A stretch of DNA of 20,000 nucleotides from an uncultured virus (IMG/VR IMGVR_UViG_3300042484_003076). Its lineage: Duplodnaviria > Heunggongvirae > Uroviricota > Caudoviricetes. Below are positions 1 through 7,519 of this stretch, piece by piece; position 1 is the first letter of the stretch, and every line of letters begins with the position of its first letter. The notes under the pieces were generated by a model that saw only the letters and a program-made list of their open reading frames with translations, was not told where the DNA came from and made no database searches. The stretch lies in the IMG/VR virus record IMGVR_UViG_3300042484_003076, one strand, 5' to 3'. The translations under genes were made by a program, and so were the position numbers.

Positions 1-8
1 GACCTATA

Positions 9-29
9 GGTTTTGTCAATAGCAAAACC
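9..29 (-). promoter_or_regulatory. Putative leftward promoter (-35 TTGACA) inside an inverted repeat; -10 would fall just outside the window
   Basis: Plus-strand TGTCAA at 14-19; GGTTTTG (9-15) / CAAAACC (23-29) inverted repeat. Confidence 0.4.
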
Positions 30-48
30 AAACTATTTTTATAGACAC

Positions 49-77
49 AAAAAAAAGCCGTCGCGAGTGCAACGACT
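49..77 (-). terminator. Intrinsic terminator downstream of cas6
   Basis: Minus strand GTCGTTGC-ACTC-GCGACGGC (8-bp stem with G:U) followed by T8. Confidence 0.75.
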
Positions 78-136: not shown

Positions 137-718
137 TTATTCAAAAAACCCGCATCCTAGATGTTTGCGACCTCCCAACCCTTTCTCTTGTAATATTAAA
201 GACTCGTTAGAGCGCAAATCTGAAAACATTACAGGGTATACAGCACACGGTTGCTTTTTAATAATTAGCTGCTCCTTGCGCCCTATTGTTGGCAGTGTAT
301 TAATATCAAACTTTGCTAGTTGCTTACCTAGCGACACCGCAAACCTAGTAAGATCGGGTTCACGATTGTTGTCGGTTTTAATTGATACCCAAGCCGCTAG
401 ATTCTCTTGAGATTTTAGCTCTGTGCCATTAACCAGCTTGAGTTTAATCAACTCTTTGCCTAAATGGATTTGACAATCAAAAAGCATCGTTAGCTCTGTA
501 ATTAAATCTTTGGAGCAACGTAGCTTTATGGTGTTTTGAGTTAAACGTAATGTGCGATCGTCAAAAATATTTGTGTTACTGATTCTACCGATCGCCCACT
601 CAGGGTTATCTTTGAGCTTAGGAGCTAATCCCGTCAAGGCAGAATAGAGACAGTAATGGTAGTTTCTAGGGATTAAAGAGCCTTCAATACTGAAAAGAAA
701 TTCTACGAAGTTACTCAC
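137..718 (-). CDS. cas6: Cas6 endoribonuclease, I-MYXAN/Cmx6-like
   Basis: C-terminal Gly-rich loop LQEKGLGGRKHLGCGFF and N-terminal F.I.G..IP.NYHY.LYSA pattern typical of Cmx6-type Cas6; GTG start with upstream AAGGA. Confidence 0.85.
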   Translation of the reverse strand: MSNFVEFLFSIEGSLIPRNYHYCLYSALTGLAPKLKDNPEWAIGRISNTNIFDDRTLRLTQNTIKLRCSKDLITELTMLFDCQIHLGKELIKLKLVNGTELKSQENLAAWVSIKTDNNREPDLTRFAVSLGKQLAKFDINTLPTIGRKEQLIIKKQPCAVYPVMFSDLRSNESLILQEKGLGGRKHLGCGFFE

Positions 719-760: not shown

Positions 761-808
761 CATGACTTTCTTAGATCGTTCTTAGATCGTTCTTAGGGAT
801 ATCTCATG
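761..808. repeat. Short tandem 11-bp repeat array upstream of cas6
   Basis: TTCTTAGATCG at 768-778 and 779-789, degenerate TTCTTAGGGAT at 790-800, bracketed by CATGA (761) and TCATG (804-808). Confidence 0.7.
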
Positions 809-819
809 TATCGGCGCAC

Positions 820-849
820 AAAAAAGCCGTTGCCACTGTGACGGTTTTT
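820..849. terminator. Probable bidirectional terminator, sequence-related to the 49-77 hairpin
   Basis: AAAAAA-GCCGTTGC-CACT-GTGACGGT-TTTT; T-tracts available on both strands. Confidence 0.6.
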
Positions 850-868
850 GATAATGGTAAAATAATAG

Positions 869-1014
869 ACTAGCCGAAGAATTTAAGCGTAACGATTAAA
901 TACTAAATAAGCGTCGCCTACCTTTGTTGGAGAGAAGCAGACAGGCGATCGCGAAGTGTGTTGTAAAGAAAAGCTTCTCCGCTTTATTTTAGCACTGCCA
1001 AAAGGATAGCTAGC
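869..1014 (-). ncRNA. Candidate structured RNA or inserted element of unknown family
   Basis: Nested helices 1008-1014/869-875, 980-996/899-913, 939-948/914-923, plus 973-979/932-938. Non-Watson-Crick positions are G:U on the minus strand but A:C on the plus strand. Confidence 0.45.
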
Positions 1015-1074
1015 ATCTTTAAGGACTAATGCTTCAAAACCGTTAGGGGCGGCGCAAAGGTAGCAGTTATTCAT
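1015..1074 (-). pseudogene. csf1: 5' fragment of a csf1 (Cas8-like) gene; the ORF runs on to 883 through apparently unrelated sequence
   Basis: MNNCYLC...LVLKD resembles the CxxC N-terminus of Csf1 (from recall). Start overlaps the cupin stop, and csf1 is the one core type IV gene otherwise missing. Confidence 0.5.
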
Positions 1075-1426
1075 TGATAATCACCAATCTTTTCTCACTA
1101 TCTACGGGTTGATGTTTGTTGGCAACGGATAGCAAAAAAAGCCCGTCATTTCCAGCCCTTACCCTGTGAGGTTGCGAACCGTCTATAAAGTAGCAGGTTC
1201 CCTTGACGATTGGTTCGGTTTCAGCGCCGCAATCAATCCATCCAGACCCCTCTACTCCAAACAAAATATGATCACCCTCATGGGTATGAAGAGAAGTTTT
1301 TTCATTAGGTGCAAAATTCAACATATCAGCAGCAAAGCCGTCTTTTTTTACCAGTGGCAATCCGACAGCTTGACTGCCATACATCTGATACCAGTAATCA
1401 GCATCTAAATAATTTTTAATTTGCAT
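1067..1426 (-). CDS. Cupin-domain protein
   Basis: Cupin motifs H-T-H-x4-H...VEGSG and G.CYFIDGSQPHRV; overlaps both neighbouring genes. Confidence 0.85.
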   Translation of the reverse strand: MQIKNYLDADYWYQMYGSQAVGLPLVKKDGFAADMLNFAPNEKTSLHTHEGDHILFGVEGSGWIDCGAETEPIVKGTCYFIDGSQPHRVRAGNDGLFLLSVANKHQPVDSEKRLVIINE

Positions 1427-2084
1427 ACAATAATCCTTTTAGGTATTCAAAATATTCTGGCGAAATCTTGCGAAACTCTTCTAATCTTGTAGCTTGATAT
1501 TGATTGTTAGTATTTTTGCTGACATGATCTGTAGTTCGTTTTGCGCCTAAATCATAGGCTTTTAGGTATGGCAATTCATGAAAAAAGGTATAAGCCCAAA
1601 TATCGTTTTCACTCCAATTAAAAACAGGGCAAGCGCGATAATCTCCTTTTTTATATTGATAGATAGCACCATTTTTTAGCAAGGTTGCTTTACGTTTTGC
1701 GCTTTCTTCTATCCGCAATCCAACAAAAGCGACAGGATAATCAATCCATAATTTTTGTGACTTAACTTTGTTAGGGACATGATCGCCTTGCATCAAAATA
1801 GTTTGAATGTTTAGCCCAAATTTGTCCTGATATTTTGATTCTGTTTCAGCATAATTACTAATCATTTCTCTTTCATAATGTCCAAAAGAAATAGCCAAAA
1901 TATTAGGACAAATCGACTGCACCAAATGAAGCATTACGACTGAATCTTTACCCCATGACACCGCAACATAAGAAGGAGCGATCGCTAAAGCCTCTCGAAT
2001 AATCTCTTTAGCTTTCTCAACTTTGCGCTTAAATGTTGGCAGTGTCGCATGAGCTAAAAATGCATCGCGTTCTATTCCCTCCAT
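1416..2084 (-). CDS. cysH: CysH-like / PAPS reductase family protein (type IV-B accessory)
   Basis: PP-loop SWGKDS, VGLRIEES and PVFNWSENDIWAY motifs; directly after csf3. Confidence 0.88.
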   Translation of the reverse strand: MEGIERDAFLAHATLPTFKRKVEKAKEIIREALAIAPSYVAVSWGKDSVVMLHLVQSICPNILAISFGHYEREMISNYAETESKYQDKFGLNIQTILMQGDHVPNKVKSQKLWIDYPVAFVGLRIEESAKRKATLLKNGAIYQYKKGDYRACPVFNWSENDIWAYTFFHELPYLKAYDLGAKRTTDHVSKNTNNQYQATRLEEFRKISPEYFEYLKGLLYAN

Positions 2085-2758
2085 ACGTTATCCGTTGGCA
2101 TATAGCACATAGATTTATTCGCCGCTAACCATGTAGGAGGTCTCCACCCCCAGTTCATCATATTGATAGATTGAGGCTGTGGAATCATATTAATTGGCAT
2201 TGGTCGGGCTAAACTTTCACCTCTCCACAAATGCCAATCATGTTCAAAAGGAAGTACTTCCCATTTGTGTACCTGTCCGCAACCTTGCGATCGCTTCTTG
2301 CCAAGGTTCGTAACATTTAGAATTAGTTCGCTAATCTTGTCAGCATTGCCAATCGCAAACCAGTGTATAGTCTGCATTTCGCGATCATATCGTGGTAAAT
2401 CATAGGCTTTAAAATGCCCTTGCGAACTATCAACCTTAGCTTTCTTTTTACCCCAATCAAGGTGTAGTTCTTGCTTGTCCCATCGCTTACGGTAACGCTG
2501 AGTTTGTTGATGATTTTCGATGTAATGTGGTGAACTCACGGCCCAATACCACTCGCCTTTAAGCGTCTTCCGAGCGATCGGCATTTCATCAAAAATCAAG
2601 GGCAGATTCTTTTCAGCATCCGCAGCCGTTGGATTAGGCGTGATTAGCCCTAATTGGTCTAACAATTGATACTCAATCAGAGCATCGAAGCTAGGGGACC
2701 AGTCATCATAGGCAACTAGCGGCGTTGCCATGTGTGCGATTATTTGGAGGTTATCCAT
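2072..2758 (-). CDS. csf3: Type IV CRISPR-associated Csf3 (Cas5 group)
   Basis: G.FKAY.LP, WFAIG, LGKKRSQGCGQV..WEV Gly loop, RPMP and GWRPP.W motifs. Confidence 0.88.
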   Translation of the reverse strand: MDNLQIIAHMATPLVAYDDWSPSFDALIEYQLLDQLGLITPNPTAADAEKNLPLIFDEMPIARKTLKGEWYWAVSSPHYIENHQQTQRYRKRWDKQELHLDWGKKKAKVDSSQGHFKAYDLPRYDREMQTIHWFAIGNADKISELILNVTNLGKKRSQGCGQVHKWEVLPFEHDWHLWRGESLARPMPINMIPQPQSINMMNWGWRPPTWLAANKSMCYMPTDNVWRE

Positions 2759-3962
2759 TCAATAAACTCCGAATATCGCTCTTAGAATCAGCTAGAAAGC
2801 CTTTGTAATCTTCGAGATATTCTTTATACCTTGCGTGAGATTCAGTAGCGCGATCGCTTAATTTCTGAGCATGAGGTGTAATCGTCATAAACTCACCGCG
2901 ATCGCCCTCCGCAGTCTCAAACCAGAATTGCATAGAACATAGTCCGCAACCCGTTCCTGATTGACCGCCTAAGTATGGCGATTCAGCGAACTTGAGTAAT
3001 GCATCTGCAATAAATCCTTCTTCGATTCTGGTGACGTTTGCGCTCCAATAAGAGTACAAAGTAGCACCTGTTTGGAGTAGCCAATTACCCATAATCATCT
3101 GTTGGCTTTTCTCTTTTTCGGGCTTTGCTTTTTCGCTTTTACCTTTCTTGGTTTCAGGCTCCGAAACTATACCAAATAGATCGCATTGAGAAATCATCTT
3201 TTGAGGTTCTGGAGTAGCGCCGATCAAATGTTTTGCAAAGTTAGGATCGTGAAGTGAATCGCGCCTTGTCTTTTGGCTATAGGTAAGCCAATCGGAATAA
3301 TATCGAAGCTTCTCACCTAAGAATGGCATCCATTCATCAAGCAAAGCCTTGAGATCGTAATTGCTAACATCCAAAGGAGAACCATGATGTAGCCATTGAT
3401 TCACTCGTTGACTATGCTGTAAGTCTTTGCCATCAATAATCTGCTCCAGTGCTGGTATGACTTCGATTGGCAACGCAGGGGGGAACATCTGATAAAGATA
3501 CTTAGCGCTTTCTACACAAGCCAAATAAGCATCACCAACAGCGATTCGACCGTGCACCATTTGAGCATCGGATACACCAAACAATCCTTTAGGTTTGGCA
3601 GTTCCTAACACTGAAAGGCATGGCAAAAGTTGCCTAATCTTCTTATCCAAATCTAAGTCATTACCCGTGCCACCATCAATCGCGCCGCCACAAAATAGAG
3701 CGTGATGCATCGTTGGCGATACTTGCACACCAATCTGAGAGAGGAAAGAATCAATACCACAGCGCCTCAAAATACGATTGCGTAGTGAGTTACCAGAAAG
3801 ACAAAACACCTCAGAGGGATTTCCCTCTAAATCTGTCACTTTCATCGTTCGTAAATTGGTTTGATTGCCTACGGACTCACTGATATGAGACAAGGGCTGT
3901 AGCAATGTAATTTGCAGGTGTAGCTTGATATTATGGCGATCGTGTGGGTTGTAATTAAGCAT
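2751..3962 (-). CDS. csf2: Type IV CRISPR-associated Csf2 (Cas7 backbone)
   Basis: PLSH, SGNSLR..LRR, LFCGG, LP.LSVLG, GRIAVG, TRRD, QMI and C-terminal LGGQSGTGCG Gly loop. Confidence 0.9.
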   Translation of the reverse strand: MLNYNPHDRHNIKLHLQITLLQPLSHISESVGNQTNLRTMKVTDLEGNPSEVFCLSGNSLRNRILRRCGIDSFLSQIGVQVSPTMHHALFCGGAIDGGTGNDLDLDKKIRQLLPCLSVLGTAKPKGLFGVSDAQMVHGRIAVGDAYLACVESAKYLYQMFPPALPIEVIPALEQIIDGKDLQHSQRVNQWLHHGSPLDVSNYDLKALLDEWMPFLGEKLRYYSDWLTYSQKTRRDSLHDPNFAKHLIGATPEPQKMISQCDLFGIVSEPETKKGKSEKAKPEKEKSQQMIMGNWLLQTGATLYSYWSANVTRIEEGFIADALLKFAESPYLGGQSGTGCGLCSMQFWFETAEGDRGEFMTITPHAQKLSDRATESHARYKEYLEDYKGFLADSKSDIRSLLNG

Positions 3963-4485
3963 TATTAGCCTCTACATCTAGAGTATTTTCTGTTTCTTCT
4001 GGAATATTCAAAGCGCGATCGCTTTCAAAGCGAACACGACAAAAAGCAGTAATAATGTGCGGTTTTGATTTGCACAAACTGAGGATATGGTGATCGCTTA
4101 TCCCGTGCGTATATTTCAATTTGGCTAAAATGTCGTTCCATCCCAACCACCAAAGATCAATATTTTGATCGCAGTCTTTCTGTTGAATGTCTCCCATACT
4201 GCCATCGTCATTCACAGTAGCCCGTAAAACCACTTGTTTTGGCGCGATTATGCGAGTCCATTCTTTTGGGTTGAGGTGTGCAACGATTAGCTTTTTTGCC
4301 AGATTCTCAATGTAGTCGTCGATATTGCGAGAGGGAATAGCAGCATTTTGGATACTGCTTTGAAAATATTCCCATGTTTTTAAGCCCATGGCAGGACTTT
4401 TGCCCTTGTCTCTACAGCGAAAAACCCAATAACTAAGCGCACTGGCTAATGCTGTAGTCTTGTCCTCAGTTTCTATTCCATACAT
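3955..4485 (-). CDS. Probable type IV-B small subunit (Cas11-like)
   Basis: 176 aa helical-looking protein (W.YF..SI.NAA...IDDYIE.L.KKL) coupled to csf2, in the position cas11 occupies in IV-B loci. Confidence 0.6.
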   Translation of the reverse strand: MYGIETEDKTTALASALSYWVFRCRDKGKSPAMGLKTWEYFQSSIQNAAIPSRNIDDYIENLAKKLIVAHLNPKEWTRIIAPKQVVLRATVNDDGSMGDIQQKDCDQNIDLWWLGWNDILAKLKYTHGISDHHILSLCKSKPHIITAFCRVRFESDRALNIPEETENTLDVEANNA

Positions 4486-4513: not shown

Positions 4514-4810
4514 TTATTCTAGATCACAAACAGCATTCCAAGCCGCCAACTTAGCTTTACCGACAGACACACCACGCGCCCGCATCTCCTTTGGTGTTGC
4601 CTTACGTAGCTTAGGGATAGCGCGGTAATTACCCTCAACACACTCAATATGCAATCGCCTGTTACCGTATGCGATCGCGCCTTGTTTAAGAAGTAAGCGC
4701 AATGCGCTCGTATTGATTTGCGTACAGATTTCAATGTAGCGTAGAGAGTAAGAGCCGCGATGGGTGCTGAAAAAGCCGATGAGCTTGGCTCGTTCAATTT
4801 CTAGAGGCAT
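4514..4810 (-). CDS. Small basic hypothetical protein, possibly DNA-binding
   Basis: Start overlaps the stop of the kinase gene; Arg/Lys rich. Confidence 0.65.
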   Translation of the reverse strand: MPLEIERAKLIGFFSTHRGSYSLRYIEICTQINTSALRLLLKQGAIAYGNRRLHIECVEGNYRAIPKLRKATPKEMRARGVSVGKAKLAAWNAVCDLE

Positions 4811-7176: not shown

Positions 7177-7519
7177 TATTCTCCATACAGTGAATAAATA
7201 GATAACACATGGCTTTAGCTGCTGTATCAGAGTACTTTTCGCCTTTAGGATTAGAAGCAAAATAGCCAATATCACCATTATCTGCTACGCCTTTTTGCAA
7301 AACATAAGTCAACCTATGATCATCAAAAGCTCTAGTGATTGCGTCTAGGGATGTGTCATATTTTGGCACTGGAATATATTGCTTACTGCCATCAAGAGGG
7401 TTTCTAACGGTTGATCTGTCGTTAATTCCACAGAGTCCATCTAAAACAAATTCTTGATAATCACCAGTAAACCCGCAAAGCTCAGCGACTTTCTTTCTGA
7501 TTGAGATCGTGTTAGTCAT
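7154..7519 (-). CDS. Phage protein, possibly ABA-sandwich-domain-like
   Basis: VAE.CG...P.Y.TSLDA...TAA.A.C pattern recalled from that family. Confidence 0.5.
   Translation of the reverse strand: MTNTISIRKKVAELCGFTGDYQEFVLDGLCGINDRSTVRNPLDGSKQYIPVPKYDTSLDAITRAFDDHRLTYVLQKGVADNGDIGYFASNPKGEKYSDTAAKAMCYLFIHCMENNDGYKSD

Follow-up and report, generated by a model that had tools for sequence, protein, structure and literature searches.

The question raised by this locus is what became of csf1 in a virus-borne type IV cas operon. In the window, which is the whole stretch of 20,000 nucleotides analysed here, the operon lies on the minus strand in the order cas11, csf2, csf3, a cysH-like gene, a cupin gene, an ORF of 63 codons and cas6. 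The 63-codon ORF (hereafter the stub) begins like csf1, the gene of the Cas8-like large subunit, and stops early. An earlier note on this DNA had offered two ways out: the complex works without its Cas8-like subunit, or the segment bearing cas6 was inserted or inverted and the rest of csf1 lies elsewhere. The genes around the stub are as follows.

3955..4485, minus strand, cas11 (type IV small subunit); PADLOC typeIV_Cas11, E 1.9e-12
2751..3962, minus strand, csf2 (type IV Cas7); PADLOC typeIV_Cas7, E 9.2e-44
2072..2758, minus strand, csf3 (type IV Cas5); PADLOC typeIV_Cas5, E 2.9e-46
1416..2084, minus strand, cysH-like gene (PAPS reductase domain); PF01507 PAPS_reduct, E 7.2e-17
1067..1426, minus strand, cupin-domain accessory gene, translationally coupled to the stub; Pfam match and 8-nt overlap
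137..718, minus strand, cas6 (Cmx6-type) with a GTG start and its own AAGGA about 10 nt upstream; PF09559, E 1.3e-32
56..77, minus strand, terminator-like hairpin behind cas6; terminator scan

The genes csf2, csf3, cas11 and cysH had been taken to be intact, and the family matches agree with this, as do their dN/dS values of 0.05–0.26. cas6 is also conserved (dN/dS 0.17–0.39). In the comparison of the window with four relatives, the cas genes around the stub gave dN/dS values of 0.05–0.39, and these genes are under purifying selection. No CRISPR array or mini-array was found in the window, in any locus examined or in the complete 80-kb relative G006; repeat finding, TRF and a k-mer script were used, the script on the window, the loci and G006. 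A 98-aa ORF at 4514–4810 (minus strand) directly precedes cas11, where canonical IV-B loci have csf1. In close relatives this ORF has 98–114 aa and 78–84% identity, and it matched neither a protein family nor the Csf1 profile described below.

The rest of the window looks viral, with a dCTP deaminase, RecT, a Bro-N protein, a C5 methylase and HTH proteins. The nearest virus record has 36% of the sampled words of the window in common, and a tblastn search of the GenBank phage collection with Csf2 gave no match. The palindrome GCGATCGC is typical of cyanobacterial genomes. The window has 33 such sites against 0.22 expected from shuffles, and this excess suggests a cyanobacterial host.

The stub occupies 883–1074 on the minus strand and reads MNNCYLCAAPNGFEALVLKD... 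Its ATG lies within the last codons of the upstream cupin gene (1067–1426), which the earlier note had left unnamed, and the two frames overlap by 8 nt. The cysteines of the stub are residues 4, 7 and 46 only; as had been read from the letters, no further CxxC pair precedes the stop at 63 aa. The distance from the stub stop to cas6 (137–718) is 165 nt, thus there is indeed no room for a full csf1 before cas6. According to the comparisons described below, the stub is divided as follows.

883..1074, minus strand, 63-codon ORF, chimera in which a csf1 5' end is joined to non-csf1 sequence; no family match, no homologue
1041..1074, minus strand, csf1 start codon onward, about 11 codons (MNNCYLCAAPN), with the ATG in the overlap with the cupin stop; DNA comparison
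1015..1040, minus strand, diverged csf1 codons 12–20, GFEALVLKD against ADKPLVLKD in intact genes; alignment and profile
985..1014, minus strand, possible last csf1 trace, codons 21–30; weak profile alignment only

As the reference, we used the Csf1 of a related viral locus, L018 (L018:3219-3866), which has 215 aa, lies 1.2 kb downstream of the cas6 of that locus and begins VNYCYLCAAPNAEKPLELKDSFTAHSNARCPDSKHLCDRCAW. It matches PADLOC typeIV_Cas8 over nearly its full length (E 4.6e-27), and TIGR03114 with an E value of 3.2e-9, under the curated cut-off. Relatives of this protein are encoded in 20 further viral loci. In the protein database 236 homologues were found, one of which is named Csf1 by a source, and PF27781 is precomputed by the database for most of them. 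The N-termini of the phage relatives follow the pattern M(N)nCYLCAAPNAxKPLxLKDxFTxHSxARCPDSKxLCDRCAW.

Three comparisons connect the stub to these genes. By tblastn, stub residues 1–29 align to the L018 Csf1 with 14 of 29 identities. A custom profile made from 19 phage Csf1 proteins was compared with each of the 607 six-frame pieces that the window yields, and the stub alone was matched (E 2.7e-5; the next best piece has E 0.48), with positions 2–31 of the 220 profile positions corresponding to stub residues 1–30. By blastn, the csf1 start of L021 is 97% identical to window positions 1075–1041 over 35 nt, and seven other csf1 starts are 81–84% identical to positions 1071–1015 over 57 nt. The proposed csf1 origin of the stub start is thus borne out: judged from these alignments, the N-terminus of the stub is csf1-like beyond chance. 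Along the stub, the likeness to csf1 is identical or nearly so to 1041, recognisable to 1015 and possibly present to about 985. Beyond about residue 30, no Csf1 likeness was seen in any frame, so the break placed by the earlier note at 1014/1015, after about 20 codons, is about right. The later Csf1 cysteines (ARC...LCDRC) are not in the stub, in which the position of the third cysteine is Ile30, and no second CxxC is present. The L018 Csf1 found no further piece anywhere in the 20-kb window by tblastn. Other csf1 pieces, such as a 3' end, were likewise sought in the window, including 700–1100, by tblastn at word size 2 and E up to 10, by blastn at word size 7 and by profile search, and none was found.

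Two other readings of the start were rejected. The cas6 genes of L018 and L010 suggested that MxNCYLCAAPN might be the true N-terminus of Cas6; this was ruled out because intact csf1 genes with the same start are present in L018 and the 20 further loci. The 25-nt csf1 start might also have been a conserved nucleotide motif. Synonymous conservation is 0.85 in codons 1–10 and 0.83–0.92 in codons 31–50, and since codons 31–50 match it, the conservation of the start is unexceptional.

The stub as a whole gave no match to Pfam, NCBIfam and PADLOC at E up to 0.1, and none to Pfam up to E 10. In a phmmer search of 1.84 billion representatives, only four weak matches appeared (E 9e-5 to 8e-4); they were judged spurious, being parts of proteins of 627–1810 aa, none of them Csf1-like or similar in size. 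A word-index search of 5.8 billion clusters found no protein resembling the stub. According to these two protein searches, the 63-aa ORF does not form a conserved family of its own; such a family would have spoken against a csf1 remnant. The join between the cupin end and the csf1 start is present in the contigs of all four sequencing runs examined (loose end before 6001). This identical join indicates that the junction is no assembly artefact.

The window was then compared with 13 viral contigs encoding close cas6 relatives (14 cas6 loci in total). The 25-nt csf1 motif is present within 600 nt upstream of cas6 in 7 of the 14, in the following states.

Window and L016: 63-aa frame
L006: 62-aa frame
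L008: 55 aa, with a 1-nt deletion in a GCGATCGC site and a 63-nt deletion
L015: frame shortened to 35 aa by a deletion
L007: Cys-Tyr replaced by two stop codons, and a deletion
L018: 14 csf1 codons fused in frame to cas6

The stub of the window contains one such palindromic site at 945–952, and the 1-nt deletion of L008 falls there. In L010, L012, L013 and L014, cas6 starts with the first four codons of csf1, MPNC, and is coupled to the cupin gene, whose stop it overlaps by 8 nt (L010:5989-6576 and its three counterparts). This arrangement resembles the outcome of a clean-up deletion by which cas6 became coupled to the operon again. No csf1 trace was found upstream of cas6 in L009, L011 and L017.

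csf1 is the terminal gene in all five cas6-free operons of the clade (L020, L021, L022, L024 and L030). In L022 and L024 cysH is the gene immediately before csf1, and the two share the 8-nt ATGnnTAA overlap that also joins the stub to the cupin gene; in the distant L034 the preceding gene is a cupin, with an ATGA overlap. The cas6 of L018, a more distant relative (L018:1964-2596; 67% identity), has an in-frame N-terminal extension of 19 residues, the first 14 of which duplicate the csf1 start. As an intact csf1 lies 1.2 kb downstream, this cas6 and a 104-aa ORF are flanked on both sides by direct copies of the csf1 5' end. According to the gene orders, the stub occupies the ancestral operon slot of csf1, and cas6 looks like an incomer into it. 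The proposal of an inserted cas6 segment is thereby favoured.

The slot between cysH and cas6 is itself variable, and holds the cupin gene (window 1067–1426), a Coq4-like ORF or nothing (L009). The Coq4-like ORFs are L008:5387-5740 (117 aa) and L017:5380-5970 (196 aa), with Pfam E values of 3.7e-5 and 6.4e-4. In Coq4-like loci that retain the stub, the swap junction is right at the stub start, and the cupin and Coq4-like upstream variants both give an ATG just before the first Cys codon.

Several other irregularities were observed in these operons. The forms of the cysH-like gene are just 52–57% identical among operons that are otherwise 95–99% identical. Between csf2 and csf3 of G006, a 125-aa GIY-YIG ORF is present (L017:3651-4028; Pfam E 2.9e-5), and it resembles a homing endonuclease inside a cas operon. 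Downstream of the intact csf1 of L021, two fragments (L021:6586-6654 and 7248-7325) encode the last 23–26 residues of Csf1 with 73–78% identity; according to these fragments, csf1 3' ends also remain as scars. In L032:1-6700, three csf3-like, two csf1-like and two cysH-like genes stand in a row.

If csf1 lost its place in the operon, it may be absent or encoded elsewhere. That the phage is truly without csf1, and that a Cas11–Csf2–Csf3 complex with Cas6, the CysH-like protein and the cupin works without the Cas8-like subunit, is improbable in our estimate, although no csf1 beyond the stub was found in the 20-kb window or in 12 close cas6 loci, and the other operon genes are under purifying selection. 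In such a complex, Cas6 might cap the RNA end instead. Both near-complete relatives with the same operon carry an intact, selected csf1 elsewhere: G004 (95% complete at 73 kb) and G006 (100% complete at 80 kb, with terminal repeats) each have exactly one full-length csf1. It lies on the opposite strand, 51–54 kb from cas6 linearly and 18–28 kb around the contig ends, and the dispersed csf1 genes show dN/dS values of 0.07–0.25. In G006, csf1 is flanked by an ORF of 152 aa and by a Cys-rich ORF of 251 aa; the latter overlaps the csf1 end, and a Mom-family gene follows two genes on (L031:6644-8787; Pfam, E 8.8e-47). Three fragmentary relatives (36–47% complete) had either the stub or no csf1 sequence at all, a result that is uninformative and lends no support.

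The sequencing runs containing the window sequence are lake-water metagenomes. One of them, X1, contains 100% of the sampled words of the window and may be its source. An X1 contig of 12.8 kb (depth 12) has the same join of cupin end, csf1 start and the following element as the window. A second X1 contig of 5.1 kb has a similar depth (8.7) and covers the L023 csf1 from end to end, gap-free and with 17 substitutions; the 225-codon frame is still open, with 5 amino-acid changes. In this analysis the X1 contigs were aligned to L023:5100-6700, and stretches without cover in some runs were left out of the evidence. Related phages could be the source of the X1 csf1 contig. Judged from the relatives and from the co-occurrence in the metagenome, this phage itself most likely carries a distant csf1. 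Of the two ways out offered at the beginning, the complex without a Cas8-like subunit is thus the less likely, because complete csf1 genes are present in the near-complete relatives and in the probable source sample. The expectation that the rest of csf1 lies elsewhere holds in that a csf1 is found elsewhere; what is found is a complete gene with its own start and not the remainder of the broken one.

The body of the stub also occurs elsewhere. The relevant features, the last two without an assigned strand, are as follows.

808..1046, minus strand, 239-nt non-coding-looking element that gives the ORF body and stop; 98.7% identical to L023:5258-5496
809..843, weak hairpin with T/A runs; 74% similar to the terminator region that follows cas6 (40–74)
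768..796, 11-nt tandem repeat of 2.6 copies; stretch deleted or shortened in relatives

The copy in L023 is intergenic, with no start codon and no CYLC in front. Behind it come a promoter-like sequence, then, about 500 nt on, a gene of 127 aa, and finally an intact csf1. These results indicate that the ORF body is a unit of about 240 nt that also exists outside any reading frame. The first 45 nt of the element retain the diverged csf1 codons 11–21, and the remainder has no detectable origin. The 809–843 hairpin was not called by the terminator scan. Over 35 nt, 40–74 and 809–843 are 74% alike, and the promoter-like sequences after the two regions (window 1–40; L023:5520-5560) are also similar. 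The regions look like recurring module-boundary sequences.

The recurrence of the 1046–808 sequence in a different context in L023, again near csf1, could mean that the stub and the element form a functional RNA or regulatory unit, such as an attenuator that controls transcription into cas6 or an RNA to which the Csf complex or Cas6 binds. The end of the element, a weak hairpin with T runs like the terminator behind cas6, and the start signals that cas6 possesses behind the element would also suit such a unit. However, the predicted fold is no better than that of shuffles (z-score −0.12), no repeat-spacer structure is present, and an Rfam scan of 1–1500 gave no match for the element (two irrelevant sub-threshold sRNA matches appeared near 35–173). 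The fold and the Rfam scan disfavour a non-coding RNA. The element has also lost parts in L007, L008 and L015, 7 of the 14 loci lack it and still have all their cas genes, and its carriers are too closely related for their 98–99% identity to be informative on constraint. We consider an RNA or regulatory unit very improbable. That the 63-aa ORF is a genuine small protein reusing the N-terminal CxxC knuckle of csf1 is scarcely credible: translational coupling to the cupin gene persists, the window, L016 and L006 have an open frame, and by eye two synonymous changes and one non-synonymous change precede the L008 frameshift, but L007, L008 and L015 have an interrupted or truncated frame, 7 of the 14 loci have none, the large protein collections hold no homologue, the L023 copy of the body has neither start codon nor CYLC, and three cysteines do not make a complete Csf1-type zinc site.

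We therefore return to the csf1 remnant. It is highly probable that the 63-codon frame is a non-functional recombination scar of csf1, and that the large subunit is most likely provided in trans from outside the window. The ancestor would have been a cyanophage-like virus of lake water with the operon cas11-csf2-csf3-cysH(-cupin)-csf1, in which the csf1 ATG overlapped the stop of the preceding gene. Recombination at the csf1 5' end would then have placed cas6 in the terminal slot, and cas6 would have brought its own ribosome-binding site and GTG start. The csf1 start would have remained as about 11 pristine and about 9–19 decayed codons, joined to about 240 nt of DNA that looks non-coding, where by chance the frame remains open up to 63 codons. 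With its coupling to the cupin gene preserved, the stub may still be translated into a junk peptide. With one CxxC pair and no Csf1 body, this peptide would be unable to act as the large subunit. A functional large subunit would most likely come from an intact csf1 located elsewhere in the genome, and the system is thus most likely not Csf1-less.

From the states of the frame, we infer that the stub is not under selection and has no function. Residual selection could nevertheless be hinted at by the intact frame in 3 of 6 free-standing stubs and by the ATG that both upstream variants supply. A handful of arrangements is the basis for the proposed order of cas6 insertion and csf1 export.

The recombination scar may be part of a larger design, although this is rather unlikely. 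In a speculative extension, the IV-B effector of this clade would be a split system, and the stub would be the scar of csf1 export. The backbone, together with Cas6, the CysH-like protein and the cupin, would perhaps be encoded in one transcription unit, which we propose with the same reserve. Csf1 would conceivably be encoded in a distant unit of opposite orientation near the Cys-rich ORF and the Mom-family gene, a suggestion that is no less tentative. The coupling of the stub and the hairpin might still damp read-through into cas6. If the split system is real, the supply of the large subunit would be timed separately from that of the backbone during infection.

The findings bear on annotation as well. 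Seen alone, this operon would be annotated as a Csf1-less IV-B system, whereas the comparison points to a large subunit that is displaced and not lost. The first codons of csf1 with their start/stop overlap appear to be a recurring seam for cas6, a methyltransferase-like gene and other cargo, and swaps at this seam leave stubs and in-frame N-terminal tags on cas6. The natural variants (with and without cas6; csf1 linked, unlinked or duplicated at its 5' end) may be useful for the question of type IV-B function.

When compared with Csf1 (TIGR03114 cas8u_csf1; PADLOC typeIV_Cas8 PDLC01721), the stub has the same 11 N-terminal residues, the first CxxC among them, and its translational-coupling junction is that of intact phage csf1 genes. 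With 63 aa against 211–237 aa for Csf1 in this clade, it lacks the body and the later conserved cysteines, and its frame is not conserved in relatives. By this comparison the stub is a fragment of Csf1 and not a member of the family.

Among the papers listed by our literature searches on type IV-B, none describes this stub or an unlinked or split csf1. In the passages of PMC8175902 and PMC7038947 that concern it, subtype IV-B is characterized by csf1, cas11, csf2 and csf3 with a cysH-like gene, and by the lack of an array and of Cas6; a passage of PMC7038947 gives Cas6 within IV-B as a rare exception with 12 instances. As in IV-B systems such as the Csf complex of Mycobacterium sp. JS623, in so far as these passages describe them, the window operon, a type IV-B-like cassette, keeps cas11, csf2, csf3 and the cysH-like gene together. 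It also resembles them in that neither the window nor the complete relative G006 showed a CRISPR array. Unlike the IV-B systems described, the cassette is virus-borne and includes a Cmx6-type cas6, as is often the case in this clade, and a cupin gene. csf1 is the first gene in described IV-B operons, whereas it is the last gene in the operons of this clade that keep it. In the clade of the window, unlike IV-B, csf1 has left the operon: the window locus retains the stub, and intact copies are located in G004, in G006 and on the separate X1 contig.
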